From NCBI GenBank assembly GCA_963674785.1, contig OY771555.1, positions 736,001 to 800,000 on the forward strand: DNA of 64,000 nucleotides. Direction: 5' to 3'. The stretch comes from Caldisericia bacterium. Lineage in GTDB: Bacteria > Caldisericota > Caldisericia > JAAYUI01. Below, piece by piece: positions 1,071-49,425 of the stretch (positions are counted from its first letter, which is position 1; each line of letters starts with the position of its first letter). The position numbers and the translations under genes are program-made. Under the pieces are notes generated by a model. It ran no database searches and had not been told where the DNA came from. It was given only the letters and a program-made list of their open reading frames with translations.

Positions 1071-1077
1071 GCAACAG

Positions 1078-1106
1078 AGTTTGACATAATGGTTTGTTCA
1101 TTTCAA
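1078..1106 (-). promoter_or_regulatory. Putative sigma-70 promoter for a leaderless radical SAM transcript
   Basis: Minus strand TTGAAA-17 nt-CAAACT, 7 nt before the ATG at 1070; no SD. Confidence 0.45.
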
Positions 1107-1187
1107 GGAAGGTTGATATGGTGTGTTTTTATTACGAAAAAATTGATTAATCCAAATTATTCTCATTATTCCAGTCTCTTATCTCCG

Positions 1188-1215
1188 TTGACATTCTTTC
1201 CACAGCAAGTATCTT
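1188..1215 (+). promoter_or_regulatory. Putative sigma-70 promoter for a leaderless or near-leaderless NHL/thioredoxin gene
   Basis: TTGACA-16 nt-TATCTT, 8 nt before the ATG at 1224; no SD. Confidence 0.5.
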
Positions 1216-1223
1216 TTATAAGC

Positions 1224-3986: not shown

Positions 3987-4136
3987 GTTACAGATATGTA
4001 TATATTCATATCACAATGTGTAAATCATGTACAGCATGTGTTACTGGAACTCAAAATTACCCACTTTCATGAATATCCGCGTATAGTATTCTCTAATAAA
4101 TCCGTGCTTTGGTACAGAATAACAGGCTATCTGTGC

Positions 4137-4152
4137 TGGCACAGAATTTGCA
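4137..4152 (+). promoter_or_regulatory. Sigma-54 (RpoN) -24/-12 promoter of the giant-protein operon
   Basis: TGGCACAGAATTTGCA: GG and GC separated by exactly 10 nt, matching TGGCAC-N5-TTGCW. Predicted +1 near 4163 coincides with the 5' end of the folded leader. Confidence 0.8.
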
Positions 4153-4161
4153 TTATGTAGT

Positions 4162-4406
4162 CTCGGAAGGTGTACGTGCTACGCCAGACGTGGTTTTTTG
4201 TTCTACCCGTCCTGGTGTGTGCGGGTGGCGGTGATGATGCCCGACATCTGTACAAGCGTGCGACTTCTGCGATACGTTTGACCAGCATTTATCTACACAC
4301 ACCTATGTGGTTTGGTGTGTGCTTTGGCTCAAAGTAATGAGTCGGTTTATGTTGTTGTGGTCACTGATGGTCAGGACAGGAAGCTGTTCTGAAGTCCTCT
4401 TCCGGG
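4162..4406 (+). ncRNA. Long structured 5' leader (cis-RNA candidate, family not recognised)
   Basis: Closing helix CTCGGAAG(4162-4169)/CTTCCGGG(4399-4406). Inner helices 4171-4176/4249-4254, 4203-4210/4221-4228, 4296-4303/4314-4321, 4326-4331/4338-4343, 4279-4284/4358-4363 and 4371-4379/4384-4392. The SD (AAGGAGAG, 4421-4428) lies outside the fold. Confidence 0.65.
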
Positions 4407-4433
4407 CTTAAACCTATGTGAAGGAGAGCTTAA

Positions 4434-7400
4434 ATGAGAAAATTTGTAACATTTATGGTCGCATTAACACTTGTAGTGGCGGCTCTGGTACCTGCATTCT
4501 CTATCGTCAATGCTGACGGAGACAGAATCAGGGAAGGTGAACCAAACACACCTGCAACTATGGCTGCAGTCAGGTGGCATAAGGTCGGTTATGATCATGA
4601 AGGTAATATGCTTAACCCAAGCACCCTCGATCATACAGAGGTTGAAAGGGCTGGGCTTGATGGTACCGGGTACAGATTCTTCCCCTGGCAGGATGATGGT
4701 GAACAGATTTGGGGAAGGGCATCTGATGATGTGGCTTATGAGATGCCACGTTTATTACCAACTTCTGGAAGTCATGACTGGCTTGGTAGATTTGACGCAT
4801 CTAACTATGATTTCGACTACGATAATTCAGCTAACAACTATGCGTGGTGGACTGTTTTATACCTCAACATCGAACCAGATTCCGGTAATTCCCAGGAATA
4901 TAAAAAATGGTATGTAGTAATCGATCGTGATGGAAATGCCTGGTTTGACCCAGACGGAAAATTCCATCGTTGCGAACTCGATTCATCCGCAGACCCAATG
5001 TATTATGAGCCAGGTTCACTTACATACGTCGAGGGTTCATGTCGTACAAACCCAAAGGCTCTTCTTGACCCAATCCCAAGCAATAACACACAGGGACCAT
5101 ACAACCTTAAATTCGGTTCAAGAGCTGCTCTCGATAGAATTTATTTCTGGTGGAAGTATGACACAAATGGAAACCTTGTAGACAGAGTATGGAGACTTGG
5201 TTGGTCAGACATGGTCGACTACGATCCTGCACCAAACCTTGAGCACGGTGTTTGGGACCCAACAAACTCAGATACATGGTCAGTTGTTTCGTATATTCCA
5301 ACATATGACCCCTACACAAAAACACATATTCCAGATGCAGATGTAGATTGGGATGCAAAGCTTGACACAATCCCATTCTCACTCTCAGCAGATCCTGTGT
5401 GGCCAAATGTCACAGAGGGCGTAGAGTGTTATCATGATGCAAATGGCAACGGTGTCTATGATCCTTATGAGTTCATCTACAGAAAAGGTGCCGGATTCCC
5501 AGTAGGTCTCTTCACCTCATCAGTTCAGCCTGGTGATGTGAGAGTCACAAATGTAAGCACAGAAAATGGAATCTTCAAACAGAACCTTAGAGCAGGATCT
5601 GTTGTTGGTGGAGATGAGTTTGATGTTGGTGCAGTACTCCTCCCATTCAACCACATGAACCCTCCATCCGGATATCCAACATATGTGCATACACATGGCA
5701 AGGGAACAATCGATGGCAGATTTGATGATGGTGAGTTCATCTACTGGAAAGGTGCCGCTTCAACAACATTTGGAAACACATGGCTTGAAGTCCCTGCAGT
5801 ACCAGGTTCAACCGTTATTGCTGTTGCATCAGTAAACGGATTCGATCTTGCTGATGAAGTTGCCCTTTACGATCCGCTCACTGGAACATACTTCACCTCA
5901 ACAATCGATGACATTGATACAACTGTAACTCCTCCACTCATCACACTCGATAATGCAGTTACATTCGCATTCCCACTCTACTCATCATTCTTTGAGATTG
6001 GTGAAGTAGAGATCGGTGACATCAGACTTACAACTGTCAACGAGAGACACAACAACAATACAAGATCATGGGATTGGCACGGCACATGGTGGACAGATGC
6101 ACTTATCCTTCTCGAGGTTCTCGAGGGTGGATGTCATACACCACTTTATAACATCACTGTTGAATCAAACCTTTGGATGGGTGGATACCCAACAAATGGT
6201 GAATTTGAAAAGGGTGATGTTCCATCTGAGGCAACTGCAGCACTCCACTCACCAAATGGTGACATTGTAGCAGCAGCTCAGAGAATTCAGAAAACAACCG
6301 TCCTTGACCCAACAGGTTTCGAGTTCGAAGTCCCAGCAACAACATTTGAGAACATCAAACTTGAGTATAGAGAATATCTTGGACTTGAAATATTCAAAGA
6401 TGATGGAATCAACAACAACGTTGGTGAACCACAGTTCACAGTAAACTGTGTCCGCGGAGACATTGTTGATGACTATTATGTGTACGACAGCACAGAAGAG
6501 TTTGTTGGCGCAGACGATGTCGAAACACAGCTTGACTTTGAATGGTCAAGACAGACACAGTCATTCTCAAACCTTGAGATGTTTGTTGATGTCAGTGGCG
6601 AAGGCGCACTTGGTGTTGGAGAGCCAATCTATCTTGATGAAGACCTTTCAAATTCAATCTCAGCAGGCGACCTCAGAATCACTGATGTTGAAGTCGTCAG
6701 AGGCGACAGCAACATCATCGCTTATCCATCAGGATCAAGAGTAACTGCCGGTGACGCTGATGTTGATTATTTCACAACCTTCCCAGCAATCGGTACTCCA
6801 GAACTCAGCCCAATGCCAGCGGGCGTAGAATACTACGACCAGGCTCATGGATGTGTTCCTCCAAATGATACATATGATATTGGTGAGCCAATCTATTATC
6901 AGGCTCCATCAACCGGTATCGCAACACTCTATTCAAACGATTTTAATAACCAGAACAACCCAACAGGAACCGCACCAAACCTTACATTCCATGACAACAC
7001 AGGTCCTGGTTCTGCTTTAAGTTATCCAGCATATAGCTTCACAAACACCGTTGATAACTGGGGTGAGCTTGACGAAACAAACTCCGGTCTCTTCATTAAT
7101 GGTGGTGCAGCTACATCAGTTACTGACAGAGAGAATAATGATCCTGGCGGACAGATTGGAAACCCTTCAGCCGGTAATTTCGAAGTCTGTTTCTTTGATG
7201 ATAATGCTCCTCCAGTTGGTGCAACAAGATGTAGTGAGCTTTATTCCGGTACAATCATCCTTAATCCATCACTTGGCATGGAAGACAACAAGATATTCAC
7301 AGCTGATGTATTTACAGAACCAAATCCTGCATGTTTGAGTGATTGGTGGCCACCAGCAGTCATCTTCAGATATGATAGCCCAAACAGTTTCTATGCATTA

Positions 7401-10400
7401 ACGCTTGTTCCTTATGACGGCTCATATGTATGGTATGATTACTCCAATGCCGATGGTAGCTTCATTGATAATTTCTATGGTCCAGCCCCAGATACCTATC
7501 TTATTAACATCATACATTACGAACCAGCAGACGCTGGAAACACTGGATATACAGGAACATCAATCTTCCAGACAGAGCTCAATTCCTTTGATCTCAATGA
7601 TTGGATGAATGTTGAAATCAGAGCATATGCAAACCTTGCTGGATTCCTTGATTACACAGATATCCTTATCGGTGGAACACTTATTAGTGGATCATTCCCA
7701 AGCTCAATTAATCCAGTAGGTTCACCTCCAGGTGGATTTGGTTTCATGGCAGGAACATATGATTCAACATATGTTGGAGCAGTTAGCCCACTCTATTTTG
7801 ACAATGTGACCCTCTCAACATATCTTGTTGGGGCAACACTTGACACAGTCAGACTTACCGATGTTTGGGTAGATGGCACAAAATATCCAGCAGGTTCAAA
7901 AGTTCTTGCCGGTGACTTCTACAGACTTGAAAACCCAGTTTATGGTGTAACAACAGGTAAAAATACAAATGCCAGATATATGGATATCGAAGTATTACCT
8001 GGTGACATCGGACTTAAATATGAAATCGACGGCTTCTCACCAGAAGACGAAGAGTTCAAACCACTTAAGATTGAGAAAACCTCACATATTAAAGTTTCGC
8101 TTGATCACGAACTTGAAGGTGTTTATGCAACCGGAAAAGTTATCGGTGACAAGAGAAATAGACTTTATTACAGACCTGATTCCTTCTATGTAAACACAAT
8201 CCCAGCCGAGTATCAGGTTGTTTACTCATCACCTGCAGAGGCAGAACGCAACTTCTTCCACCCACACACTTCAATTCAGGGTGACAAGGTTTATGTCTCA
8301 CTCAGAGAGACAGATACAAATATCTCCCCATACTTTGCAACAACATATCTTTCCGAGTATCTTGAGGAAATTATTGATACAACAGCAATTATCGATGCAG
8401 AAAATCCAGTGTATGAGTTTGAATTCACACCATACAGAGGAACAATTGTTGATGATATTGGACAGGAATTACCAATTCTCCTCAGAGCCTATATGGATGA
8501 TGGTGGAATCCAGACATCACCTGATGACAGCAGATTCTCATACTCATTCATGCTCGATAAGAATCTGGCCGACAGAACAGTTGACGCTGGAAGCGTAGCT
8601 TATTCAGAATACAACTTCATTGACCCATGGCATATGCAGAAGAAATGGGAGATTGATGAAGCCTATGCAAACTATTGGAACCAGGCATACACAAGAGCCG
8701 CAAGATTTATTCCAAACCCATACGAAGTTGAACACATGGCAGAATGTGGTCTCTCAGACAACTACGATTGTTATGGCGTAGAAAAACTTCATGTTGAGCC
8801 AGAAGGAATTGAGATTATTCCAAGCTCACCTTGTGTTGACCCACTTTCATACAGATATCCAAACATCAGTCTTAAACTCAAAGCCTATGACAACCCGGAC
8901 GATGTCAATGACCCAGCAGGTTACACAATGGCATTCCCAACCACCGAAGATTCCGTTGCTATCGCTACATACAACGTAAACGGTGCCGGTATCAGATATA
9001 TGTGTACAATGAGAGCATGGAACATGAGTCATACTGTTCCAGATGATTTCTATGCCTACTTCATTGTTCAGGTAAATGATGACGGTTCATGGATGGGTTG
9101 GAGAATGAATGAAGCAAACCTTCCAGGTATTGTTGACTTCACAGACTCATTCTCAGTGATGCAGTCATATCCATTCCTTCAGAAGATGAATAACCGCGGA
9201 AACGATTCTCATGATATTGGCGACTATGATTGTTCAGTTGGCACAGGTGTTGTTGACCTTTGCGGTTCTGGATGGCCACCACTTGGTGATGTCACCATTT
9301 ATGATACTTACTCAAGTTATTTCTGTGATCCAACTTGGACATATCCAAACATCCCATACTATGGAACAGTTTATCACTATGGTGTAAAAACATACATCAC
9401 TCCAAAAACTGAAACTGACGAAGGTGGACTTATCTCTATCGTTTGTCAGCCAATGAATACCGAAGAAGATCTTCATATCCGTGTTCATACAAGCAATGTT
9501 GAGGTTGACTACAATAGCACAAACCTTAAACACGGTAACAACGCAACATACTTCAGATTTGACAGATCAGGTATCCACCAGGGTAGCACAGGTGGTTCAG
9601 ATCCTAACCAGTACTATGTTCCAAGCGTTTCAAACGTTCACGACACAAACCCACCAGGAATCAGAAACCTTATGATGGCTGAGACAGTTGATTACTGCGA
9701 CGTAATCACACTCAAGGTTCTCCCACCAGATACTGATCTTAACTTCAACAATCTCTACATCGTTGACCATGCTCTCCAGTACAGTGATGTCGAATATGCA
9801 GGTTCTGCAACAGGTGGAGATCCACTCGTTGTGCTCGATACACCAGAGAGATGGATTAGACCTGATTATAACCCACTCTGCGTCTTCAGACCTCTTTCTG
9901 ACGATGAAAACACAGATGTAAGATGTTACCCAGGTGGACAGACTCATCTTATGAGAGTCGAGAATTCACTTAGAGGTAATGGTTTCAATGCAACTCCAGC
10001 ACTTTGGAGAAAACAGTTTAACAAACTCGGAACTGAGTTCTTTGGACTTACCGACTATGGTCTGTATTTTGAGCTTACTAGAGAAGACTCAGGGTACTGG
10101 GGTGTTCCAACAACATTCGCAGATGGAATGATCAAGAGAATTGAGATCACCGGACCGTTTATGACTCCACTTGACCTTGATCCTGAATTTGATTCAATCA
10201 AGTACAGATCAGGAACAGCAACCGGATCTATTCTCGGATATCAGTATAAAGATCTTAGATATGTTCCAATCAAGTATGATTATTCAGGTAAAATTGTTGT
10301 CGACACACTCAATTACATGACCTACGAGCTTGGACCATCAGACTTCTCAACAACAACCAGCCCTGCATGTACAATTCCTGGCGATTTCATTACCTTCTCA

Positions 10401-13400
10401 GATTACAACATGTATCTTGCTGTCGGAAGAGAACTTGATTATAGATTCGTCGTCAGACCACAGATTAGTGGTATTCAGAGTTCACAGAGAGTAATGGTCT
10501 TTGACGAGCTTATTCCAACTGGACCAGGTAGAATTGATATTACTGTCTGGCTTCAGGACGGAACAAAGAAGATTTTCCAGGATTGCTGTGTTAAGCCACC
10601 AGCAGATGGTATTGATGTAGCCGGTATCAAGATTGAAGGTATGCCACACTTCGTCACTGTTGATGAAGACAATATGCTCAATCTTAAACTTACAGAAGGT
10701 TACGGAATCGAGTCAGTAGGACCACCAGCTGAATACGGTGCAGGAATTCAGGAATATCAAGAGTGTAACGATGCACTTGTTTATGTATGGCAGGATAGAG
10801 GAATCTATGATCCAGTGGAAAGACTTTATGATTTCGCTGGTGACGGATACTGCTCAATGGCTCCACAGTCAACAGATATTTCCGAAATTTACTCACCATA
10901 CACAGAAGATGATGATCTCAACTCTGATGGAAAAATTAGCTTCGAAGATTATGAAACTGAGATCATTGGTACATATGATATTAACACAAACACATGGACA
11001 AACGGTCTTATAGATGCAAGAACATTCCATAGACAGAATGGTGAATACTCATTCAATGTTCATACAAATACAGTAGGTATCGACTTTGGTTCCTATGGAA
11101 CAGAAACCGAACCTGATCACGTTATTGCACCTGATGAAACACTCGATGTAACTGTTACTGCTTACAAGTACGGTGACGACAATAACGACAGAAGCTTCAG
11201 ACCATTCTGGGGTGGACGTGATACCCTTAATGACTCAGCATTCAGTCATGAGGTTTATCTTGCAGGTAGAGCATCAGCATTTGTTGAAGCAAGAGAAGAT
11301 CTCACAGCAACCGTAATTCCTGAGCCACTTACAGCTGGATGTACACCAGAGCTTCTTGACCCAACTGCACCTCTCACATTTGAGGTCAAATGGGCAAACG
11401 GTCAGCCACTCAACCTCAGGGATGAAGGTGTTCCAGATCCAAAGGGTGGAAACGAAGTCAAGAAAAATGATGCTTGGATGCATCTTTTCAAAGATCCACA
11501 TCCAGATGATCAGTATTATTATCCAGGTCAGATGCTTCCACAATATTACTGGCTTAGAACCGACCTTCATAACGATGACTGGACCCAGATTGGCAACCAG
11601 AGAATGTACGGTTATGACACAGATCCATTCAACCCAATCGAGTTTAGCTGGAATCCAAAAGAGGGTGTTTATGAGTTCGAGGGATTTGTTGCCAACGATA
11701 AAGGTAACTTCGAAACGGTCATTTACTCACCAGACAGAAGACATAAAGCAACAGTTAATGTAAACGTTGAGCTTCCAAAAGTTTCTTACGATCTCCTTCC
11801 AAGACAATACTCTATTAGAGGGTACGATAATGATTCATCATTCGATCCAAATCTTGTCTTCCATGTAAACGAAAGTGAAGATTTCGTAGCAACTGGTGCT
11901 GATCTCAGATACTATGCAACTGTGCTTACATTCAAAAATGCCCAGGGTAAATTGATCCAGGGTCTCGCTGAGTCAACATCAGTTTGTCAGGGTGGAGATG
12001 GAATGTACGCAAGATTCACTCCATTCTTTACAAGACCTGAATACTTCAACTGGGTAAGTGCTCCAAACACATCATTACGCTATTTAAGAAGATATCCACA
12101 GCATGCTCAGGCATACAACTATTATCTTGGTTCAGATCCAAATGGTGGTCGTGGTGTTATGGTTATGATCGCTGATCTTGATGGTTCTGGGTCTGCCGGT
12201 GATATTTGGGAAGAATATATGCAGTTCGGATTCGCATATGCTGATTCAGGATTGAGAGTTGGTGGAGATAGCGGTCCTCGTGCTCCGTATTATCCAACAA
12301 TAAACTACATGTACGAAGATGGAACATATAATCATTGGCAAGCATGGGATGGACCATATGAAGCTGGTTTCAACTATGCTGAACCTGCTGGATATGGTGT
12401 CGGTTGTATTTACAATGAAGAGTATGAAAAACTTTATATGTTCCCAGATACAAATAGAGACTTTACATTCGATTATCAGGATTCATTGAATATTGATAAT
12501 AGAGGTCAGGGTCTCGTATTCGTTTTCGTTGATGATAAATTGAAATTTGGTGCAACCGTTGGTGTTACAAAACATGCTCTTAAACCAAAATTCAGTGACA
12601 TCTATGGTGGTACTGATCCATATAATGAATTCTCACCACAGAGAACTGCAACAAGATTTGTTCACGTAAAACAGGGTAATGCCGATTATGGAACAAGTGA
12701 CGGAGTGTACGCTCTCGACTGGGACGCAATGCCAGACAGAGTTGTAAAAGCTGATTATGTAAATGCTAAGGTTTTCTGGGCGGAAACTAGAGAAGAAGTT
12801 GGAAAAGACGTCCTTGATGAGAACAACTACGACCTTGCTTATGGTGTTGAAAACCATCTTTGGGTTGAGTTCACACCTGCTGATCCAAGAGACAATCCTG
12901 TTGTCCAGGGTCTCACAGTTACAATTGCTGATAATGACAAAGAACATCCATGGAATGGTACTAAATCCGAGAATTCAATATTCTCAACAATTATTAAGGG
13001 TGACGTAAATCCAAACGTGAGAGCTGCTCAGATGTATGTTACACCAACAGGTACTGGTGCCGACATCATGGCTCTTAATAAACGTGGAATCACCTATGGT
13101 ATATTGTTCGATCACTGTACTTCATACGGAATTGTTAACTTCGACGTAATTATGTCAATTCAGCTTATTGCTGACTCACTTGAGCCACTTAAAGTCGGTG
13201 TCCCAGGAACTCTTGTTGTAAGTGCTCTCAAGACTGCCGGTGGCGAGCCAATCGAAGGCGCAACTATCCACATCAAGGGTGCAGGCGTTGAGATGGAGAA
13301 GAAGTCAAATGCTGAAGGTAAAGCAGAGTTCAGCATCACTCCAACAGAACGCGGAAGAATCTTGGTTACTGCTGAAGCAGACGAGATGAAGGGAACCTAT

Positions 13401-14315: not shown

Positions 14316-14335
14316 GTAGTACCATAGATTGACAT

Positions 14336-14388
14336 TTATGCTGTACCACCCCGATTAGGGTGGTACAGCCGAGAAAGAACAGATTTAT
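14336..14388 (+). promoter_or_regulatory. Conserved junction element copy 1: TTAT, 12-bp hairpin, CGAGAAAGAACAGATTTAT
   Basis: Stem GCTGTACCACCC/GGGTGGTACAGC (14340-14369), no U-tract; flanks match copies 2 and 3. Confidence 0.75.
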
Positions 14389-14536
14389 TTATTACGGTTT
14401 AAAAAAGATTGAAGATAATGAAGAGATTGATAAAAGAAGCGAGTAAAGAGAGATTGGTTTACCGTGAAGTTTTGGGTGAACCAAAGGTACATGACAAACT
14501 TCGATGCGGGGTTTGTCTGTCCGAAGGAGAGGTTAC

Positions 14537-25111: not shown

Positions 25112-25154
25112 GTATAATTGTTCGAATACGAATTTAGTTTGAAACTTTAAAAAG

Positions 25155-25213
25155 TTATCCTTTCGGGTGCGTGGATGAAACCCGCCCCGAAAGGCGAGAA
25201 AGAATTGATTTAT
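25155..25213 (+). promoter_or_regulatory. Conserved junction element copy 2: TTAT, hairpin, CGAGAAAGAATTGATTTAT
   Basis: Stem CCTTTCGGG/CCCGAAAGG with bulged extension (25159-25194). The 3' flank matches copy 1 at 17 of 19 nt. Confidence 0.75.
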
Positions 25214-25330
25214 AGTTGGTTTGATAAGCAAAAAAATGGACTTCATTACTAGATTTATATCGGTTGAAAAAAAGGTTGAAGTGGCCCAAGATTGGCCCCT
25301 TGGTGGCTTAAGTCTAAAAGGAGAGGTCAG

Positions 25331-36361: not shown

Positions 36362-36383
36362 TTGTAGTAGATAGGATTGAAAA

Positions 36384-36439
36384 TTATCACTCTGACCCCA
36401 AATGGGGTCAGAGTGCGAGAGAAAAAAAGATTGATTTAT
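36384..36439 (+). promoter_or_regulatory. Conserved junction element copy 3: TTAT, 12-bp hairpin, CGAGAGAAAAAAAGATTGATTTAT
   Basis: Stem CACTCTGACCCC/GGGGTCAGAGTG (36388-36415), no U-tract, same flanks as copies 1 and 2. Confidence 0.75.
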
Positions 36440-36552
36440 TTGATTATGAATTATGATTGGTTACGCGAAACTAGAAGGAACGTTAGATCGCGGTTTCGAT
36501 CACTCCCAGGGGGGAGAGTCGTGAACCTTCAATTAGGTGAAGGAGAGAGCAA

Positions 36553-39500
36553 ATGAGAAAAGTAATAACTACTCTGCTTAGTTTGGCACTAGTTATGGGG
36601 ATGCTCGTTAGTATTCCGTTACTAACTCCCAAGGACACAGAAGCAAAGAATGGTAACCAGCCTGCAACAATGGTTGCAAACAGGTTCCATCGTATCGGTT
36701 TTGACCGTTACGGACGTGAGTTGCCAGATGGAAAGCAGGTCCCATGGCAGAAGGTAGGAGAAATCTGGTGGGGAAGAGAAGGATTCCCAATGCCATTCGC
36801 ATTAAGAGCGGTTGACAATCCACCAAACTCCATTCCACTTCCGCCAGCCACAGCGTCATACGCAACAATCGCAACACCCGCAAGTGGCGACATTAACTCA
36901 CTTACTGGCAGACTTGATGATGAAGCCTTACCATCATCAATCGCCCAGATCCAGGACTTCGGTCTCTGGTCAGAAGTGTGGTTAACTGTTGATGTCACAA
37001 GTGGTGAAGATGCAGCCAGTGGAAATGGACTTACTACTTATAAACATCACTGGTATGTTATCCTCGATGAACACGGACAGCTTTGGTTTGATACCGATGG
37101 TCGATTCAACGACTGCCGTTATTATGGGTATGCAGACCCTTATGATGTGAATTATCAGCTTGACCCACATGATTACACACATGATAACTGCACAGATAAC
37201 CCAAGAGCACTTGTCGACCCAATCGTCTCAAACAACACACAGGGACCATACATTCTTGACCCAGACTACAATCCATTCTCAAACTCAGCTGCAAATGATC
37301 TTGGTTTCCAGTTCTATAGTCTCAGTTATGACCTTGCAAACCAGGCAGCTCCTGTTTATGAATCAAGGATTTATTTCTGGGATGCTGACAAGACCGGTTA
37401 CAACACAAAGAGACTCTGGAAACTCGGTTATGCTGATATGACAGATTACCTTGCAGAAAGAGCACTTGGACCAGCTGGTGCAGTTTGTTCTGGTATCGTC
37501 TACGAAGAAGGTCCAGATCCAGATACCCTCTCAGCACTTCAAGAAAATCTCTATAAGGGGTATGAAGACTGGGACGTTTCGCTCGGTCTTGAGAGATTCC
37601 CAGTAAACCCCAATGGCACCTTCATGGACACAGGCACAGTCCTTCATGCTGAGAACGTCACAGATGCTGCATCATATCCAGATTCTATGACATCCTTCAA
37701 CATGCAGACACCTGTTGCATACAACTTTGGTGAGTTTATCTACAGAAAAGCCGGTGCACAGTCCTATTACCCAATCCCTGCTGATGTTGCAACTGCACCT
37801 TGCTCATTTGTAGACGGCGGCGATGTCAGACTCTCAGATGTTGTTGTCACAAGAAATGGATATATCCAGACTTATCCAGAAGATACAGCAGTATTTGACG
37901 CTGGTGTTATAGCTGTTTGGGATCCAGGTGATGACTATGATGTAGGTACATCACTTTGGACATTTGCAAACCCAGCAACTTCACCAACTTTCACCGAATA
38001 TGAATACTACCATAACCAGAGAGTTGCCGGTGTTGTTAACCCAACCCCTCCAGTTGTAACCTCAAGCTATGACCCAGGTGAATTCATCTACAGAAAAGGC
38101 AATGGAAGCAGTGAAAGATTTGTTGAGGCCGGAGACTTCAGACTTACAAACGTCAGAGGTTGGCAGACAGATGACTTCATGCAGCATGATGCTGACAGAC
38201 CATACCTTATCTTTGATACTGATGGACTTACACGTGCTGGTATCATCGATGGTGACCTTCTTCTTATGGCTGAGGTTATCAATGGTGGTTGCCTTTCACC
38301 ATATTACAACATCGCAGTTCAGACAGATGCCTGGATTGGATGGCGTGATAATGGTATGTGGATGCCTGTCGATATTGGCTACACAGCAGCAGGAATCAGA
38401 TCACAGTTTGATACAACAATCAATCACTATAACAGAGTCCAGAAGAATGCAATGCTCTCATCAAAGAGCGAAGGCTTCTTTGTACCATCAACAGTTTTCC
38501 ATGATGTAAAACTTGAAGAGAGACAGTTTACTGGTTGGTCAATCTGGCTTGATGATGGTGTTGATAACAACATTGGTAGCTATAACTACCAGGCTCTTGC
38601 AAATCCAAATATGCCTGTCCGTGATACAATCGCTGCAGCATCACTCAACCTTTCAAACGATCTTGAAGACAAGTTCTTTGTTGAGCAGACCGTTGGTGGT
38701 GAGTCTCTTGAAAAATGGGACTTCGATTATGGTCGTGGATCAGCGATGGATGACTTTGGTGAGCTTGTTGCATTTACAGATTCCAAAGTAACAAGTGTGC
38801 CAACAGATGTTAACGCAGGTCCTCCATATATGTTCTTTGATGCCGGTGGCGAAGGAATTTTCGGCTGCAACGAGCATATCTACAGAGATATGGATAGATC
38901 CGGCGACATCACAGTTGGCGACCTTAGGCTTACAAATGTCACAACTTTCAGAAACCAGGGTACAGGAACAAACTCAGGTGCAATGATTGCTTATCCAGCA
39001 GGTTCAAAAGTTGGTGCCGGTGATCTCGATGTTGGTGAGATTCTCACTGCATTCCCTGCAGTTTCCGCTCCTGAAGTTTTCTGTTTCTATGATGTTGCAC
39101 ATCCAGCATCAGGTATCCCAAGAAACTACGAGTATGACCCAGGCGAAGACATCTATCTCCAGCCATCAGACGGTGCCGGAAGTTATATAACAGAAGTTGA
39201 TTATCGTTCAGTTCGTGCAACAGAAGTTGACATCCAGGGAAAAGTTTATCCTTGTGGTACACCTGTTTCTCTCTCGCAGGCACTTTATGTTGAAAACGAA
39301 GTCAACATGATTTCAATGGGACATAACGGTCTTTCTAACTTCATGGATATGGAAGTTATCCCTGGAGATATCCAGGTTAAGGTTGAAGTTGACCAGGAAT
39401 TCATGGTTGAGCAGACCTCACACGTTAAAGTTGAAGTTACACCTGCCCCAGACGATCCTGATGACAAATATCATGTTCTCCTTGAGAACGTTCCAAGATC

Positions 39501-42500
39501 GTCATTCAACAATATCGCAGAAACTGTAAGAACAATCGACATGGCACATCCAGAAGCTCACTTTGAAATTACACCATACAGAGGCTCATGTGACCTTACA
39601 GGTTTCGTGCAAGATAGAAAGATTTATGTCCACGTAATCAAAGAAGAGAGCGATCTTAACGCATATAGCGGTCTTCTCATGCTTCCACGTGACGGTGAAT
39701 ACTATGATCCGTTCTGGAAGACAGTTTATAGAGACCCAGAACACCGTGCCTATGCAAACTATGCAAGATACGTCTTTGATCCTGTGACGGATCCAAGATA
39801 TGAGCTTTATGGAGTTCACTACAGAGAACTTTCAAACTCATATGACTGTTATGGAAAATGGGAATCAACAATCCAGCCAGAAGACCTTGACATTACTGCA
39901 AACAGAAAATGTCTCACCGTTCTTGAGCAGAGATTCCCGAACCTTATTCTCACACTCACAAACCACGATAACGAGAATGACGTAAATGACCCTGCAGGTA
40001 TCAGGTTTGCAACACAGTCAATCGCTGACAGACCACATCGTGTTAACTACAACGCACGTGGTGCTGGTGTCAAGTTCCTCTTCACAGCAAACAACATTGA
40101 TTTCACAAAGAAATACATTGTCCAGGTTAATGATGATGATACATTCATCTGCTGGGAGTGGGATGACTATGAACCACTTAACATGCTCTCACCACTCGAT
40201 GTTCTTATGTTCAGAGACATTACTCCTGATCAGACTTGGGGCAACGTGCCTTACTCAGTACCAACATCATTTGGTACAAGCGTAACACCTGACCCACGTT
40301 ATGGTCGTGGAACTACAGGTCAGGCACCAAGACTTCCAGTTGATGCAGAACCAGAATCAGAAGCTGAGAAGTGCTCAGTGACTGATGTTGACTGTTCTGG
40401 AAAACAGGCTACATGTGACCTTTGCGGAATCGGTGGCGGAGAAGTCGAAGACTTTATCCCAACCGGTGCTATCACTCTTAATGACACATATGGCAACAGC
40501 TATATTGAGTTCATCATCCAGACCTTCGGTGTCCCAGCAATGGTTACCGATTATGGATACCTTTCAACAACTGATCCTGGTGGACAAATGGTTTGTGCAG
40601 TTCTTCCAAGAAATGCAAAAACACCTCTTCATATCAGAGTTACAGCAGAACAAACAATCTTCAACTTCAACAGTGTAGACGGACAGCTTTGGCCACCAAA
40701 TGGACCATCATTCCTCAACGACTACACCGGTGGTGTTGACTATTGCGGAACCATCAGCTTTGATATCACACCTCCAGATCCATACGTAAACTTTGCTGAG
40801 CTTACAATGGTTGACCACGCACTACAGTATTCACAGGCCAACTACACAGCTGGTTCAGATTCAGATGGATACCACACAAATCCAACCTCACCTCTTGGAG
40901 TACCTGCACCTCAGATTCAGATTCCATACAACCCAATTATCACAGACCTTACAGAAGAAGTCATCTGTTATCCTGGTGGACAGACACATCCATTTAGACT
41001 TGATGGACCAAATTCCAATAGAAGATCTGGTTGGAATGCATATCCAGCAATCAACAGTGAATATTACAATGGAACAAGCAAATCTCAGTTTGTAAAACTT
41101 GGAACAGAGTTCTTCCCACTTACAGACTACGGATTATTCTTCATCCTCAAAAACCAGCGTGGTGAGCATCTTTCATTTGCTCCAGTAAGTCACTGGATCC
41201 AGGATGAGAATGGTAACTATCCAACAAGATATGACCTTCAGCTTAAGAGAGTCCTCATTGAAGGACCATTCATGAGACCAAAATTCATGAATGCTGAAGA
41301 TACAAACTTCCTCCTCAACAACCATTATAACGGCACAGAATATCTTCCAATCTCATACGACTACAGTGGAAGAATTGAGATTTCAGAAGAAAATGCTGCT
41401 TCATTCATCGCAAATTCACTTAGCTATCATGGTGGAGATTTTGCAAACTGCACACAGCCATATATGACTGATTCTGACCCAGTTAGAAACCAGCTTGTTT
41501 ATCCAGATGATACAAACATCCCAGAGAACGACTATCTCAGACTTCTCGATCGCTCACTCGACTACACTGCAAACCACTTTGCAAACATCGGTGGTAGACC
41601 AGGTGGTGCAAATGATGTATTTGCAATCGATGAAATCATCCCAATCAACTATGGTAACATCTCAATTACCGTTGAGCTTCATGATGGAACAAGAAAGATT
41701 TATCAGGATTGCTGTGTCAAGCCTCCAGTAGATGGTATTGACGTACATGGTCTTGATATCAAGGGTGCACCATCAGAGATCAAGGTTGACCAGGATAACG
41801 TAGTTGAAATTGAACTCTTCGAGTACAACGATATTCAGGTAGTTAACGAATGTAATAATGCACTTGTATTCTGCTGGCAGGATAGAGGTATCAAGCAGAT
41901 CGGTGCAGACATGAGATTTGGTATCGGTGATGGTTGGATCACAAACCCACCAAGAAACAGCAACAAACAGAATCTTGGTTGGCAGTTCCTTCCTGCAGAT
42001 GACTTAAACGGTGACAGCAAGATTTCATTCAATGATTTCGAGACCGAAATCCTTGGAACATATGATATGGTTACCAACACATGGAGTGCAGGAATTATTG
42101 ATGCAAGAACCTACCAGAGAAATGATGGTCAGTATAAGTTTGAACTCACTCAGGACAACGGCTGTATCGTAGATGAAATCGGATTCGACTTCGGTGGCGG
42201 TGATGCATCTGGCGGAAGATTTACATTGCCAGATCATATCATTTCACAGAATGAAGAGCTTCCAATTTGGATCACAGCTTACAAGTATGGTGACGACAAT
42301 AACGATAGAAGCTTCCAGCCATACTATGAGATCCCACCAGAATCATTCTTCGGAAAAGCTGGCTTCTCACATGAAGTTTATCTTGCAGCGACTGCAGCAA
42401 TTACAGTTACTGGTGAAGATGACCTTGTTGTTGAAACAATTCCAACAGTACTTACTGCTGGTGTAACACCAGAGTATGTTGACCCAGATGAACCATTCAC

Positions 42501-45500
42501 ATTCCAGGTTTATCATGAAGATGGTTCAACCCCATTCGACTTTGTTGAAGAGGGTGTTCCAGATTACACCGGTGCATACAGAATCACAGATGATGAGTTT
42601 ATCGCAAACAACATCTTTGTAGACCCAAGACCAGACAACACATACTACAACGGTTACGATGCTGAGCTTCCACAGTACTACTGGCTCAGATTTGACCTTC
42701 AGAACTATGACCCAACATCACAGGGTCAGGGTTGCGATAACCATCATATCTTTGCCTCTGAAATTGAAGCAATCAATTTCATCAAGTATGACTTCACCAA
42801 ATCTGCAGAAGGTAAGTACTCATTCAGAGACTTTGTCGCAAACGATGAGGGTAGCTTCCCAGTTTATATCTACTCACCAGACAGAAAACATTATGCCGTT
42901 CATGATGTTAAAGTTAGACCTCCAAAGGTAGTCTATGAGGTAAGTAACGTCGACGGTGATGGTGCCGAATTTACCGTTCCATCGATTGATGGTGATGCAG
43001 ACTTCCTTCTTACTGCTGCAAATAACAATATGTATAAAGTAAGAGTTACATGTAAAACTTGGGATGGCGAAAAACTTCTCAAGGGTACTGCGAAGGGTGT
43101 AAGTGTTTGCTCAGGATCAGATCAAGATGTCGCAAGATTCACACCAGCATTTACAACCGGTATGTCATTTAACTCATCATATGGTGATCTCTACCTATTT
43201 GGAACAAGAGGCGATATTGTTACCTATGATCAACATCCATTAGATCTTGATGTTGCCTATAGAGCAAGAGTTAGACCACGTATTGGAATTGATACAAATG
43301 GTAATGGTGTTGTTGAGCCTTCAAATAATGAGTTCTTCCAGGCCGGATCGTTTGAGTATCCATTCTTCAATATCTACAGTTACACATCAGGCTCATATAG
43401 CAGATTCTACTTCAGAGAAGTAACTGTAAGTTGGGGTGCAGGCGGCCTTCCACCAGCTTTCTACTACAACACAACTAACCGTACTGACAAAGATATGTAT
43501 GATGGAAAATTGAAGTACAGCACAGGTTACTTCTGTGATATCGTCCCAAGAGATGATTATGAATGGCAGTGGGGACCTGGTGCGATCTATAACAGTTCTC
43601 ACCATGGTGGATATATCTTTGCTGATTTCAACGATGACGGTAACCTCTCTTATGCTGACTCACTCTCACTTGATGATAGAGGACAGACAGAGCTCTATAT
43701 CACAGCAGGTGATATCCAGAGATTTATCGGACTTGTTGGTGACAACCCATGGTCTAACACCAAGTGGGGCGATGTATATGGTGGTAACACACCATACCTT
43801 TCAGGAATCACTAACTTCTCTGGTTCAGATCTTACAGTTAACTTTAAGACTGATTCTTATGCTCCAAGAACAATGAAGAGAAGATATGGATTCAGACCAA
43901 CAGGTTCTTCAAATCCAAGCGCTTTCGTTCCAGCAAGAGACGGTGCGTTTGCACTTGACTGGGAAGCATGGCCAGCAAAAGATAACGCTCTTAAGATTGC
44001 TGCACCAAAAGTAGAAGTGTTCTCAGCTGAGACACATTCGATATTTGGATATGAAATCTTCGACTCAAACAATTTCGATATTGTTTATTCAAAAGATAAT
44101 CACGTCATGATGATCTTCACTCCTGCAGATAGAAGTAATGGTGGTTACGGTGGAATCTGTAGAGATGTCCCACTTATGCCTGGCGCAAAAGTAACCATGT
44201 CTCCACTTAACAGTGGTGGAGCTGCTCCAAACTACTCCTATGGTAGAACAGTCAGATTTAATCCAAGTGATGATATCCTTGAGAATTCACCTGACCTCAG
44301 CAACAACCATGACAAAGCTACACAGTGCATCTCACTCATCAGACCAACAGGTGTTGGAAGAAGTGTACTCTATATGTACTACACCCAGCAGAATAACAGA
44401 TTCATCTACCCATATGAGTACTTCATTTGGAGTGACCTTGATGGATATGCCATCTTCCCAGGATTCGATTCAGTGCGTGGACTTCAGGTTATTGCTGACA
44501 CTGAGTCACTTCTTACCGCTCAGACAACAGGAACCATCAACGTTAAGGTTGTTGAGTATGGAACAAACCATCCAGCTGCAGGAGCCGAGCTTACAATCGA
44601 GGGCGCCGGTGTTTCTATCCCAGCTAAATATTGTAACGATAAGGGTGAATCAACTGTGATTGTTACACCAACAGAAACTGGTGTAATCACGATTAAAGCA
44701 AGCTTGACAGACCATGTTGACGGAATTGGCAAGATTGTTGTTGGTGCAGATACTCAGCCTCCAACACTCACAATTGAGAAACCAACAAACTTCGAGACAA
44801 TCAATGACAAGAAGGTTGAGATTGAAGGAGCAACAAGACCAGGTTCAACACTTACAATCAATGGAAACAAGGTTGCTGTTGACCTTAATGGTGAATTCAA
44901 ATACTCCGCAGCTCTTGAAAATGAAGGTTCAAACACACTTGTTATTAAGTCTATGACACCATCCGGTGCAACAACAATCAGATACGTCACAGTCGTAAGA
45001 GACCTTACTGCTCCACAGCTTCTCATCAATGATGACACACAGATTGTTGCTGGCGCAACAACCTATACTCTTACAGGTAAGGTTGAGCCAGGCTCAACAG
45101 TCACTGTCAATGGTGAGGAAGCAACAGTAGTCTTTGATGTTTGGACAATCAAAGTAAACCTTGTTCCAGGTGAAAACACATTCAGAGTTGAAGCAATGGA
45201 TCCTGTTGGAAACGTTGAAACAAAAGAACACACAGTAACAAACTGGAATAAGGTCGAAATCGAGTTTGTTGTCGGAAACACAACAGCATATGTTGATGGA
45301 CAGCCAAAAAGTATGACAGTTGCCCCAACAACAACCAACGTTTCATCAACACTCATGGTTGATGCAAACTTCTTGTTCTCAGTACTTGGAGATTCAGCAA
45401 GTATCTCACCAGATGGAAATTCCTTCACAATCAAACTTGGTGATTCAACCGCAACATTCACAATCGGTTCAGACATACTTAATGTTGACGGAACTCCAAA

Positions 45501-45660
45501 GAACCTTGCAGAGGCTGTAACACGTGATCCTGCAACAAACCAGGTAATCATTCCTGTTGCAAACATCCTTCAGTATCTCAATGCTGAAACAGATGGAATC
45601 CTTGATATTGACTGGAATCCAGCAGCACAGAGAATGACAATTACAAGACTCTGGAAATAA
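36553..45660 (+). CDS. Giant secreted surface protein, paralog 4 (3035 aa), the minimal scaffold without large inserts
   Basis: SD AAGGAGAG; signal peptide; all shared core motifs; C-terminal Ig-like and stalk domains ending IDWNPAAQRMTITRLWK. Confidence 0.9.
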   Translation: MRKVITTLLSLALVMGMLVSIPLLTPKDTEAKNGNQPATMVANRFHRIGFDRYGRELPDGKQVPWQKVGEIWWGREGFPMPFALRAVDNPPNSIPLPPATASYATIATPASGDINSLTGRLDDEALPSSIAQIQDFGLWSEVWLTVDVTSGEDAASGNGLTTYKHHWYVILDEHGQLWFDTDGRFNDCRYYGYADPYDVNYQLDPHDYTHDNCTDNPRALVDPIVSNNTQGPYILDPDYNPFSNSAANDLGFQFYSLSYDLANQAAPVYESRIYFWDADKTGYNTKRLWKLGYADMTDYLAERALGPAGAVCSGIVYEEGPDPDTLSALQENLYKGYEDWDVSLGLERFPVNPNGTFMDTGTVLHAENVTDAASYPDSMTSFNMQTPVAYNFGEFIYRKAGAQSYYPIPADVATAPCSFVDGGDVRLSDVVVTRNGYIQTYPEDTAVFDAGVIAVWDPGDDYDVGTSLWTFANPATSPTFTEYEYYHNQRVAGVVNPTPPVVTSSYDPGEFIYRKGNGSSERFVEAGDFRLTNVRGWQTDDFMQHDADRPYLIFDTDGLTRAGIIDGDLLLMAEVINGGCLSPYYNIAVQTDAWIGWRDNGMWMPVDIGYTAAGIRSQFDTTINHYNRVQKNAMLSSKSEGFFVPSTVFHDVKLEERQFTGWSIWLDDGVDNNIGSYNYQALANPNMPVRDTIAAASLNLSNDLEDKFFVEQTVGGESLEKWDFDYGRGSAMDDFGELVAFTDSKVTSVPTDVNAGPPYMFFDAGGEGIFGCNEHIYRDMDRSGDITVGDLRLTNVTTFRNQGTGTNSGAMIAYPAGSKVGAGDLDVGEILTAFPAVSAPEVFCFYDVAHPASGIPRNYEYDPGEDIYLQPSDGAGSYITEVDYRSVRATEVDIQGKVYPCGTPVSLSQALYVENEVNMISMGHNGLSNFMDMEVIPGDIQVKVEVDQEFMVEQTSHVKVEVTPAPDDPDDKYHVLLENVPRSSFNNIAETVRTIDMAHPEAHFEITPYRGSCDLTGFVQDRKIYVHVIKEESDLNAYSGLLMLPRDGEYYDPFWKTVYRDPEHRAYANYARYVFDPVTDPRYELYGVHYRELSNSYDCYGKWESTIQPEDLDITANRKCLTVLEQRFPNLILTLTNHDNENDVNDPAGIRFATQSIADRPHRVNYNARGAGVKFLFTANNIDFTKKYIVQVNDDDTFICWEWDDYEPLNMLSPLDVLMFRDITPDQTWGNVPYSVPTSFGTSVTPDPRYGRGTTGQAPRLPVDAEPESEAEKCSVTDVDCSGKQATCDLCGIGGGEVEDFIPTGAITLNDTYGNSYIEFIIQTFGVPAMVTDYGYLSTTDPGGQMVCAVLPRNAKTPLHIRVTAEQTIFNFNSVDGQLWPPNGPSFLNDYTGGVDYCGTISFDITPPDPYVNFAELTMVDHALQYSQANYTAGSDSDGYHTNPTSPLGVPAPQIQIPYNPIITDLTEEVICYPGGQTHPFRLDGPNSNRRSGWNAYPAINSEYYNGTSKSQFVKLGTEFFPLTDYGLFFILKNQRGEHLSFAPVSHWIQDENGNYPTRYDLQLKRVLIEGPFMRPKFMNAEDTNFLLNNHYNGTEYLPISYDYSGRIEISEENAASFIANSLSYHGGDFANCTQPYMTDSDPVRNQLVYPDDTNIPENDYLRLLDRSLDYTANHFANIGGRPGGANDVFAIDEIIPINYGNISITVELHDGTRKIYQDCCVKPPVDGIDVHGLDIKGAPSEIKVDQDNVVEIELFEYNDIQVVNECNNALVFCWQDRGIKQIGADMRFGIGDGWITNPPRNSNKQNLGWQFLPADDLNGDSKISFNDFETEILGTYDMVTNTWSAGIIDARTYQRNDGQYKFELTQDNGCIVDEIGFDFGGGDASGGRFTLPDHIISQNEELPIWITAYKYGDDNNDRSFQPYYEIPPESFFGKAGFSHEVYLAATAAITVTGEDDLVVETIPTVLTAGVTPEYVDPDEPFTFQVYHEDGSTPFDFVEEGVPDYTGAYRITDDEFIANNIFVDPRPDNTYYNGYDAELPQYYWLRFDLQNYDPTSQGQGCDNHHIFASEIEAINFIKYDFTKSAEGKYSFRDFVANDEGSFPVYIYSPDRKHYAVHDVKVRPPKVVYEVSNVDGDGAEFTVPSIDGDADFLLTAANNNMYKVRVTCKTWDGEKLLKGTAKGVSVCSGSDQDVARFTPAFTTGMSFNSSYGDLYLFGTRGDIVTYDQHPLDLDVAYRARVRPRIGIDTNGNGVVEPSNNEFFQAGSFEYPFFNIYSYTSGSYSRFYFREVTVSWGAGGLPPAFYYNTTNRTDKDMYDGKLKYSTGYFCDIVPRDDYEWQWGPGAIYNSSHHGGYIFADFNDDGNLSYADSLSLDDRGQTELYITAGDIQRFIGLVGDNPWSNTKWGDVYGGNTPYLSGITNFSGSDLTVNFKTDSYAPRTMKRRYGFRPTGSSNPSAFVPARDGAFALDWEAWPAKDNALKIAAPKVEVFSAETHSIFGYEIFDSNNFDIVYSKDNHVMMIFTPADRSNGGYGGICRDVPLMPGAKVTMSPLNSGGAAPNYSYGRTVRFNPSDDILENSPDLSNNHDKATQCISLIRPTGVGRSVLYMYYTQQNNRFIYPYEYFIWSDLDGYAIFPGFDSVRGLQVIADTESLLTAQTTGTINVKVVEYGTNHPAAGAELTIEGAGVSIPAKYCNDKGESTVIVTPTETGVITIKASLTDHVDGIGKIVVGADTQPPTLTIEKPTNFETINDKKVEIEGATRPGSTLTINGNKVAVDLNGEFKYSAALENEGSNTLVIKSMTPSGATTIRYVTVVRDLTAPQLLINDDTQIVAGATTYTLTGKVEPGSTVTVNGEEATVVFDVWTIKVNLVPGENTFRVEAMDPVGNVETKEHTVTNWNKVEIEFVVGNTTAYVDGQPKSMTVAPTTTNVSSTLMVDANFLFSVLGDSASISPDGNSFTIKLGDSTATFTIGSDILNVDGTPKNLAEAVTRDPATNQVIIPVANILQYLNAETDGILDIDWNPAAQRMTITRLWK

Positions 45661-45692
45661 TCTTCCAACCTTGTAAGAATTACTCTTGAACT

Positions 45693-45728
45693 AAAAAAGC
45701 CCCGGAGAAATCCGGGGCTTTTTCTTTT
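45693..45728 (+). terminator. Intrinsic (likely bidirectional) terminator ending the giant-protein operon
   Basis: AAAAAAGCCCCGGA-GAAA-TCCGGGGCTTTTTCTTTT. Confidence 0.9.
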
Positions 45729-45874
45729 GGATTTCACAAAACGTCCTCCGTTTGCTTTTAACTATAAATTAATCATATCCCCCTAAATATTGCAGAATTC
45801 TCATTTAAAATTTTAGAACCAGGTTGGGTTGTTTTTCGTTTCTGTTTATAGAAGAAAAAAATAAGGGGGTGTAT

Positions 45875-47581: not shown

Positions 47582-47585
47582 CGAG

Positions 47586-49304: not shown

Positions 49305-49333
49305 ACATAATTCATTTTGAAGTTTTAAGTCAC

Positions 49334-49365
49334 GGGGCAGAATCGGGAGACACTGCCCCTTTTTT
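49334..49365 (+). terminator. Intrinsic terminator
   Basis: GGGGCAG...CTGCCCC followed by TTTTTT. Confidence 0.65.
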
Positions 49366-49425
49366 AATGGGGATTCTTTTGGGGTGGATTTTTGTTTTCG
49401 ACTCTGTTATAATGGGCGGGAGTTT

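Follow-up and report, generated by a model that had tools for sequence, protein, structure and literature searches.

A 64,000-nucleotide stretch of a Caldisericia bacterium chromosome (hereinafter the window, positions 736001-800000 of a single-contig 2.23-Mb genome) carries, in tandem on the + strand, four paralogous genes for giant secreted proteins, and here we explored what these proteins might be. We propose, at a probability of roughly 0.45, that the products of this array are abundant, wall-anchored, acidic, calcium-binding structural proteins that make up much of the outer protein coat of the cell. Under this proposal, one sigma-54-driven polycistronic unit would direct the synthesis of proteins of 337-411 kDa that are very abundant, acidic, calcium-binding and exported via Sec, each held on the cell wall by a C-terminal Cu_amine_oxidN1 stalk, with three to four immunoglobulin (Ig)-like domains serving as a spacer and a large non-repetitive core displayed outward; together with three solo paralogs under the same type of promoter, the array would provide much of the outer coat, in the form of an S-layer-like canopy or a sheath. 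Abundance, wall attachment, the role in the coat, calcium binding and the stabilization of the mRNA discussed below are properties that we infer from sequence.

The longest open reading frames (ORFs) of the four genes span positions 4434-14315, 14504-25111, 25292-36361 and 36553-45660; those of genes 2 and 3 begin too early, the likely starts being ATG codons further in, at 14537 and 25331, so that a Shine-Dalgarno sequence, AAGGAGAG, stands 5-7 nt before each of the four starts (4434, 14537, 25331 and 36553). In an alignment of the four, genes 2-4 are colinear with gene 1 at 37-38% identity and are thus paralogs, the large insertions being confined to a few fixed sites and least numerous in gene 4, the shortest array member. 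Eleven Cys residues, a vicinal CC pair included, are invariant among the four proteins, which contain 30-43 Cys each, and one copy of each product would add up to ~1.5 MDa. An earlier note on this DNA had described four co-oriented giant secreted paralogs with a shared Shine-Dalgarno sequence and conserved Cys positions, a description that the ORFs, the pairwise identities and the invariant residues bear out.

Read by eye, all four translations open with a Sec-type signal peptide, in which an n-region containing Lys/Arg leads into a hydrophobic stretch that closes on an AxA-like motif. In the predicted products, Asp, Gly, Thr, Tyr and Asn are frequent, Lys is scarce, and the pI is 4.3-4.4. Their Pfam matches are limited to the last ~400 residues, where CarboxypepD_reg/Big_1, one or two Glucodextran_B and Big_13/Big_6 domains are followed by a terminal Cu_amine_oxidN1 domain (PF07833), which scores 29.6-57.9 bits in all four proteins, above the gathering cut-off of 24.2; the Ig region of gene 3 also gives a weak match to NF033510 (Ca_tandemer; E 4.5e-9, below cut-off). 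The signal peptide and the C-terminal Ig-like and copper-amine-oxidase domains that the same note had recognized in each protein are therefore in place. In passages of PMC4137172 and of a bioRxiv 2026 preprint, PF07833 is treated as a wall-hydrolase-associated or predicted cell-wall-binding module. Secretion of the four proteins, with a putative wall-binding stalk domain, is thus a supported prediction, and the combination of export and a wall-anchoring module that characterizes S-layer proteins is present here in the form of eye-read signal peptides and a putative stalk anchor. Pfam detected no SLH domain (PF00395) in the four proteins, and neither Pfam nor NCBIfam matched RTX nonapeptides or a type I secretion signature in the family proteins, which carry the N-terminal Sec signal instead.

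The first ~2600-3300 residues of each protein constitute a non-repetitive core without a family match. Pfam gave nothing on the core in 14/14 diverse full-length members, even at E<=5, NCBIfam had no match to the core of the four proteins, and, among PDB chains, a profile of the four paralogs retrieved four noise matches only (E 0.04-0.92) and a 33-sequence core profile nothing at E<=10. The view, already expressed from the sequence alone, that the core belongs to no named family has thus withstood Pfam, NCBIfam and PDB sequence searches. The ESM Atlas entry of a stored homolog (P0009) yielded look-alikes of the C-terminal domains only, with uninformative scores of 0.78-0.79; relatives are named in databases either 'hypothetical protein' or after their C-terminal domains, and our search of the literature on the envelope and surface proteins of Caldisericum, Caldisericota and Caldisericia found no description of these proteins. 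BLASTP self-comparison produced 0 off-diagonal matches at E<=1e-3 in 4/4 proteins, and Tandem Repeats Finder reported 0 rows over positions 4000-46000 of the window; with Ig-like matches occurring only in the last ~400 aa, the length of these proteins is not repeat-built in the manner of giant adhesins. The single recurrent, weak signal in the core is an EF-hand/dockerin-like loop, DxNxDGxIxxxD/E, which is recognized as EF-hand_5 in 12/33 core segments and the residues of which are invariant or nearly so in the 33-segment core alignment (aa 1040-2200 of gene 4 and 32 homologous segments).

The reading of the earlier note, in which the four proteins co-assemble, needs correction in that the array is not a self-contained four-protein system. 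The genome encodes nine full-length paralogs sharing 35-48% identity (2284-3689 aa as longest ORFs; ~27,900 codons, or ~3.7% of the DNA), five of them outside the array, including three solo genes with an array-like promoter and codon bias. Two further proteins, of 849 and 994 aa, correspond to the C-terminal third of the family. The sigma-54 promoter that had been placed, as the single one, at the front of the array is indeed the only site in the window that fits the consensus TGGCAC-N5-TTGCW (GG and GC 10 nt apart) exactly. Of such exact matches the whole genome holds three. Each precedes a family gene (array gene 1 or one of the two solo genes at 593818 and 661106) and stands 149-297 nt from the beginning of its longest ORF. 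Allowing up to one mismatch raises the count to 19, of which 5 are intergenic, and 4 of these 5 precede family genes, the additional one, TGGCATACAATTTGCA, standing in front of the 686386 solo gene. From the four family promoters to the ATG, the distances are 297, 278, 272 and 159 nt. The fifth intergenic site (genome position 1879175) lies before a 289-aa ORF or small operon, ~3 kb upstream of rpoN (1882264). The RpoN encoded there has a Sigma54_DBD domain scoring 156.5 bits, and the genome contains one strong activator candidate, an NtrC-type response regulator (genome positions 1003242-1004645) with the architecture REC-Sigma54_activat (AAA+)-HTH_8. The predicted sigma-54 regulon would consist almost wholly of the giant family (4 promoters, 7 genes).

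Upstream of the promoter, a 20-mer read by eye, ACTCAAAAT(T/C)ACCCACTTTC, differs by one position between the array and the 686386 gene, where it stands, again by eye, at the same distance from the sigma-54 site; the other two family promoters match it only in part. Directly upstream of the promoter of the 686386 gene, at genome positions 685862-686161, is encoded a 99-aa protein consisting of a Fis-type HTH_8 domain only, possibly a DNA-bending or regulatory partner. Within the same genus, the sigma-54 motif recurs upstream of array gene 1 in G067, with a leader of 291 nt (locus read directly), and upstream of the ortholog of the 686386 gene in G066 and G068 (position estimated from coordinates), and sigma-54 control may be a genus-level feature.

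Codon usage points in the same direction as the proposed abundance. The codon adaptation index (CAI) was calculated against EF-G, EF-Tu and the ribosomal-protein cluster and ranked among 1300 genes of >=200 codons. With CAI values of 0.747-0.754, the array genes fall in the 98.0-98.6th percentile (genome mean 0.601, sd 0.053), with an effective number of codons (Nc) of 36.7-37.4 vs CAI 0.516-0.651 and Nc 43.8-52.6 for their neighbors in the window, which confirms, at the level of EF-Tu, the narrow codon choice noticed at first sight. Across the family, 7/9 genes reach CAI 0.747-0.781 (98.0-99.7th percentile, Nc 34-37; EF-Tu itself, 0.786), and the two members without a sigma-54 motif have CAI of 0.651 and 0.664. 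Such EF-Tu-like codon use of the array genes fits high abundance of their products. All seven high-CAI genes sit near oriC, no more than ~120 kb from dnaA (659-661 kb) and from the point at which cumulative GC skew is lowest (~670 kb), and all point away from the latter, on the leading strand and co-directional with replication. One low-CAI family member (genome positions 1685079-1693304) is located directly upstream of rpoB/rpoC, on the same strand and near the terminus as judged by GC skew. The solo paralogs have housekeeping neighbors, serS, hisS, dnaA, parAB, gidA and lgt, along with one histidine kinase; the neighborhoods of these three genes showed none for secretion, glycosylation or sortases. 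Phage portal and terminase large-subunit genes, probably of a prophage or its remnant, are found at 584670-587305, ~7 kb from the solo paralog at 593818.

Several features of the non-coding DNA are compatible with a single, long transcript. The three spacers, of 221, 219 and 191 nt, each contain a GC-rich stem-loop of >=12 bp without a U tract, 25-47 nt past the stop codon, followed by CGAGA(A/G)A...GATT(G)ATTTAT; a loose regular expression for the latter motif hit, in the whole genome, 2/3 array spacers and one unrelated site, and the third spacer fits by eye. Spacers in G067, G064 and G060 have the same layout and different stem sequences, so that the structure rather than the sequence of the stem is conserved. 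These hairpins probably stabilize or process the 41-kb polycistronic mRNA. Intrinsic terminators on the + strand were found in none of the three spacers, and no sigma-70-like site follows the spacer hairpins; one such site, at 25091-25118, runs across the gene 2 stop codon. The terminator that the earlier note had placed at the end of the array, by contrast, is there, as a 13-bp stem with a T tract, and G067 has an equivalent one after gene 4. Rfam had 0 matches on the whole window, and the long leader is therefore not a known riboswitch. RNA libraries add assembled contigs of relatives, which show presence. In a wastewater metatranscriptome (X9), contigs ~86-90% identical over the listed pieces cover 30/30 bins of window positions 4000-23999, one contig of 10,807 nt spanning the spacer between genes 1 and 2; they start at ~4175-4225, the first ending at ~4175, some 12 nt from the expected sigma-54 start, and leave the DNA beyond that point uncovered. 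In X7 and X10, both marine-sediment metatranscriptomes, short contigs start at 4262 and cover 24/30 and 25/30 bins, and X8 covers 17/30, the uncovered bins in these three libraries carrying no meaning. As for the claim of a single operon, the one promoter, the position of the only terminator found, behind gene 4, and the contig across the first spacer speak for it, and the part that goes beyond them, a single transcript, is not something that contigs can prove. The features of the array are collected in Table 1.

Table 1. Features of the giant-gene array, in window coordinates
Feature	Position	Strand	Description
Candidate upstream activator site	4049..4068	+	20-mer ACTCAAAATTACCCACTTTC, ~70-90 nt upstream of promoter; read by eye
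Sigma-54 (-24/-12) promoter	4137..4152	+	TGGCACAGAATTTGCA; only exact consensus match in window
Long 5' leader	4153..4433	+	~270-280 nt from expected start site
Gene 1	4434..14315	+	3293 aa, 366 kDa, pI 4.3; CAI 0.750, 98.2th percentile
Candidate EF-hand/dockerin-like calcium-binding loop, gene 1	10914..10955	+	aa 2161-2174, weak EF-hand_5
Gene 1 C-terminal module	13227..14234	+	Ig-like + Cu_amine_oxidN1 stalk (Pfam)
Intercistronic element 1	14340..14392	+	12-bp GC hairpin, then CGAGAAAGAACAGATTTATTTAT; fold z-score -6.2
Gene 2	14537..25111	+	3524 aa from Shine-Dalgarno-preceded ATG, 393 kDa; CAI 0.754
Gene 2 C-terminal module	24008..25090	+	Ig-like + stalk (Pfam)
Intercistronic element 2	25159..25213	+	Hairpin, then CGAGAAAGAATTGATTTAT; fold z-score -3.4
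Gene 3	25331..36361	+	3676 aa from Shine-Dalgarno-preceded ATG, 411 kDa; CAI 0.747
Gene 3 C-terminal module	35213..36343	+	Ig-like + stalk (Pfam)
Intercistronic element 3	36388..36439	+	Hairpin, then CGAGAGAAAAAAAGATTGATTTAT; fold z-score -5.2
Gene 4	36553..45660	+	3035 aa, 337 kDa; CAI 0.752
Gene 4 C-terminal module	44761..45588	+	Ig-like + stalk (Pfam)
Intrinsic terminator	45694..45733	+	13-bp stem (45694-45723) + T tract; only one found on + strand

Relatives of the family are few and taxonomically confined. Among 5.8 billion proteins, a word-indexed search found 63 matches; those with a named source are from Caldisericia, except for two that match the Ig-like end only, and every named full-length match is a 'Caldisericia bacterium'. 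A hidden Markov model (HMM) search with the core profile against 1.84 billion cluster representatives found only 78 proteins at E<=0.001, among them a colinear remote relative of 1994 aa. Another remote relative, P0123 (1616 aa), combines a PGF-CTERM archaeal surface anchor and CarboxypepD_reg-type Ig-like domains with a ~150-residue module in common with the core (DAR..NG.Y.F ... AY.Y.D ... LTAG; profile E 2.7e-13, BLASTP identity 29% over 154 aa). Among 93 Caldisericota species genomes, 29 contain the core, in ~7-17 matches per carrier genome: all members of three families (10/10, 2/2 and 13/13) are carriers, a fourth family has weak partial matches in 3/9 genomes, and three further families have none (0/26, 0/23 and 0/9). 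Orthologs from different genera share 62-84% identity, with invariant Cys, Asp and Gly positions. Related sequences also occur in sequencing runs labeled microbial mat, sediment and wastewater, mostly in small shares.

The array itself appears to be old. In a quick maximum-likelihood tree (55 segments, 508 columns; the careful search is incomplete) with support from the SH-like approximate likelihood ratio test (SH-aLRT), array positions 1, 2, 3 and 4 each form one clade with SH-aLRT 100, including members from three genera of the family to which the window belongs, and the 1-2-3-4 order, judged from coordinates, is kept in G067, G060 and G064. Another family, f6, possesses a separate four-gene tandem array, for example, on contig 5 of G082, in which each position likewise has orthologs in other genera and the order is kept. 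The two arrays may descend from a common four-gene ancestor or have arisen separately, the deep forks in the tree having support of only 80-85. The long retention of four distinct paralogs in a fixed order argues for non-redundant roles, although not by itself for co-assembly.

How well does the proposed outer coat hold against these data? A number of observations weigh against it. The family is missing from 64/93 Caldisericota genomes, including all 26, 23 and 9 members of three families, and therefore is not the general basis of the outer envelope of the phylum. Synthesis under sigma-54 and a single NtrC-type activator suggests signal-dependent rather than simply constitutive production, and the promoter is itself unevenly distributed: in G061, from another genus of the same family, none of 5 exact motifs falls on the contig that carries the listed family genes, and in the f6 genomes 4/4 upstream regions lack the motif within 2 mismatches. 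The stalk cannot single out the giant proteins either, for the genome has at least 148 Cu_amine_oxidN1 matches (150/278 candidates scored) and this domain seems to be the general surface anchor of the organism; SLH occurs in only 2 other proteins. In genes of such length, high CAI may reflect selection on the total translation load rather than copy number. The RNA-library contigs reveal neither the start site nor the expression level nor the unity of the transcript, with DNA carry-over possible. The low Cys content typical of S-layer proteins is replaced here by 30-43 residues per protein, 11 of them invariant, while the acidic pI fits. Finally, a 1103-aa Glucodextran_B/Big_13 and stalk protein (genome positions 1128612-1131923), mostly without Pfam matches, ranks with its CAI of 0.780 among the five highest in the genome and is another candidate for a major envelope protein. 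Taken as a whole, the number of Cys residues, the huge size, the signal-dependent sigma-54 control, the presence of other high-CAI envelope candidates and the absence from two thirds of the phylum speak against a classical S-layer. As to quaternary structure, the earlier suggestion of a hetero-oligomeric lattice is possible and mildly favored by the four-gene arrays in two families. The more ambitious version, in which the four array proteins, in fixed stoichiometry, and the three solo ones would build a megadalton hetero-oligomeric outer sheath or canopy from non-repetitive subunits of an unseen fold, as the material of the BamA-less outer envelope in this clade of Caldisericia, strikes us as unlikely; if true, almost the whole predicted sigma-54 regulon in this genus would be devoted to building a sheath.

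The main rival to the coat is the possibility, which we consider doubtful and less probable than the coat itself, that the family comprises inducible giant adhesins or matrix proteins that bind substrates, partner cells or minerals or build a biofilm, switched on through the NtrC-type activator and sigma-54 by a signal such as a nutrient or a surface. The promoters and the single response-regulator-type activator would suit such a function, as would the combination of a calcium loop, Ig-like domains and a wall anchor, widespread among large adhesins, the many diverged paralogs per genome, as expected of families diversified in binding specificity, and the occurrence of relatives in runs from biofilm-type habitats. 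However, known giant adhesins are repeat-built, whereas the core of this family is non-repetitive and conserved along its whole length; export appears to proceed via Sec, the Pfam matches including no RTX or type I secretion signature; the conservation among orthologs, with its invariant Cys, Asp and Gly, is that of an architecture, not of a fast-evolving binding surface; and codon adaptation at the level of EF-Tu in seven genes suggests bulk material.

Lower still in probability, and in our judgment distinctly unlikely, is that the proteins are surface enzymes or substrate-capture machines, acting, for instance, in the breakdown of polymers, whose catalytic domains have diverged beyond the reach of current profiles. 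The ~2600 residues of unannotated core do contain many invariant Asp, Glu and His residues, including those in the motifs SHEVYL, VDHALQ and PGGQTH, and a passage of PMC4137172 presents PF07833 as often attached to wall hydrolases. Yet, neither the Pfam scan of the 14 members nor the PDB search with the core profile brought up an enzyme family, 0/19 proteins scanned among the 78 relatives from the 1.84 billion representatives have a recognizable catalytic domain, and the genomic neighbors are housekeeping genes, not transporter or glycoside-hydrolase loci. That the paralogs are alternative or variable coats, exchanged as an escape from phages or predators so that the cell makes only some of them at any moment, we regard as very unlikely. 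Nine paralogs at 35-48% identity with large variable insertions at fixed sites, their presumed exposure at the surface, and intercistronic hairpins that could act as attenuators would be in line with such switching. Against it, the array positions are old orthologous clades with an order kept across three genera, which speaks for non-redundant roles and not for rapid turnover; one promoter and one terminator serve four genes, an RNA-library contig bridges genes 1 and 2, there are no tandem repeats, and inspection of the promoter by eye, without an inverted-repeat search, revealed no invertible element. Among the readings weighed, an abundant, wall-anchored coat fits the data best.

The surroundings of the array deserve brief mention. 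Upstream of it (1056-3986) lies the gene for a 976-aa secreted NHL-repeat protein of low CAI (13th percentile), the 3' end of which is conserved upstream of the array in G067. After the terminator come three genes for secreted proteins (45824-47581, 47565-49304 and 49384-51036) made up largely of 1-4 Cu_amine_oxidN1 domains each, the first two being alike in length and domain content and perhaps paralogs. We considered these three genes (45824-51036) as parts of the system and rejected them, in view of their ordinary codon usage (27th-68th percentile) and the presence of a different gene at this place in G067. Further downstream (52879-56484) lies the gene for a protein of 1201 aa in which a Ser/Thr protein kinase is joined to an AAA_16 (STAND-like) ATPase and TPR repeats, and ORFs of similar size and N-termini are found elsewhere in the genome (169152, 1477237 and 1480890). 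Elsewhere, too, the genome contains dozens of secreted proteins of >1200 aa, one of them of 4684 aa (1541381-1555435), and a very large share of it seems to encode surface proteins.

The Caldisericota are barely cultured, and the giant family offers a concrete candidate for the outer envelope in one clade of this phylum. As a kind, a family of wall-anchored surface proteins is familiar. Its novelty lies in the core and the build without repeats, in the scale, and in the ordered arrays and the sigma-54 regulon. The family has no annotated relatives, the 78 matching clusters out of 1.84 billion including almost none from outside the class, and, with ~2600 conserved, non-repetitive residues that lack a sequence match in Pfam, NCBIfam or the PDB, new folds are probable. 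The four-gene arrays in two families furthermore present a testable case of an obligate multi-subunit surface architecture. Should the proteins turn out to be ordinary adhesins, they would amount to one more lineage-specific surface family.

The known systems closest to the giant family include the toga proteins Ompα/Ompβ of Thermotogota and the outer envelopes of Dictyoglomus and Caldisericum. The genome studied here has no match to the Omp85/BamA family, for which 7/7 diderm control genomes are positive. The outer envelope of Caldisericota, visible by electron microscopy and called an 'electron-lucent outer envelope' in PMC7736352, is described in passages of PMC4104836 and PMC7736352 as lacking BamA, with neither its composition nor its basis explained there. 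On the strength of the same passages (PMC7736352, PMC4104836), the likeness to Thermotogota, Dictyoglomus and Caldisericum consists in a deep-branching lineage with a BamA-less outer envelope, for which a protein-based outer layer is plausible; no sequence relation to the toga proteins was found, and the giant family, present in 29/93 Caldisericota genomes, is clade-specific at most. The giant proteins resemble LapA, SiiE and the Bap/RTX-type adhesins, which are built from tandem repeats, in exceeding 3000 aa, in being placed at the surface, and in their Ig-like domains and calcium-binding motifs, but their core is devoid of internal repeats, their signal is N-terminal and of the Sec type, not a C-terminal type I signal, and their Ig-like domains are confined to the C-terminal ~400 residues. 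Of the archaeal PGF-CTERM surface glycoproteins, P0123 serves as the representative; it shares the ~150-residue module and CarboxypepD_reg-type Ig-like domains with the family, although only this small part of the core is in common and the anchor of P0123 is PGF-CTERM. The classical S-layer proteins, such as the SLH-anchored ones of Bacillota and the SlpA/Cwp family of Clostridioides difficile with CWB2, have few or no Cys residues. Unlike these SLH and CWB2 proteins, the members of the giant family are anchored through PF07833, are 3-10 times larger, contain 30-43 Cys, have a core that matches no S-layer family in Pfam and are preceded by sigma-54-type promoters. What they nevertheless share with S-layer proteins is a Sec signal, an acidic pI, a wall-binding module at one end, several paralogs, strong codon adaptation and a long 5' leader.

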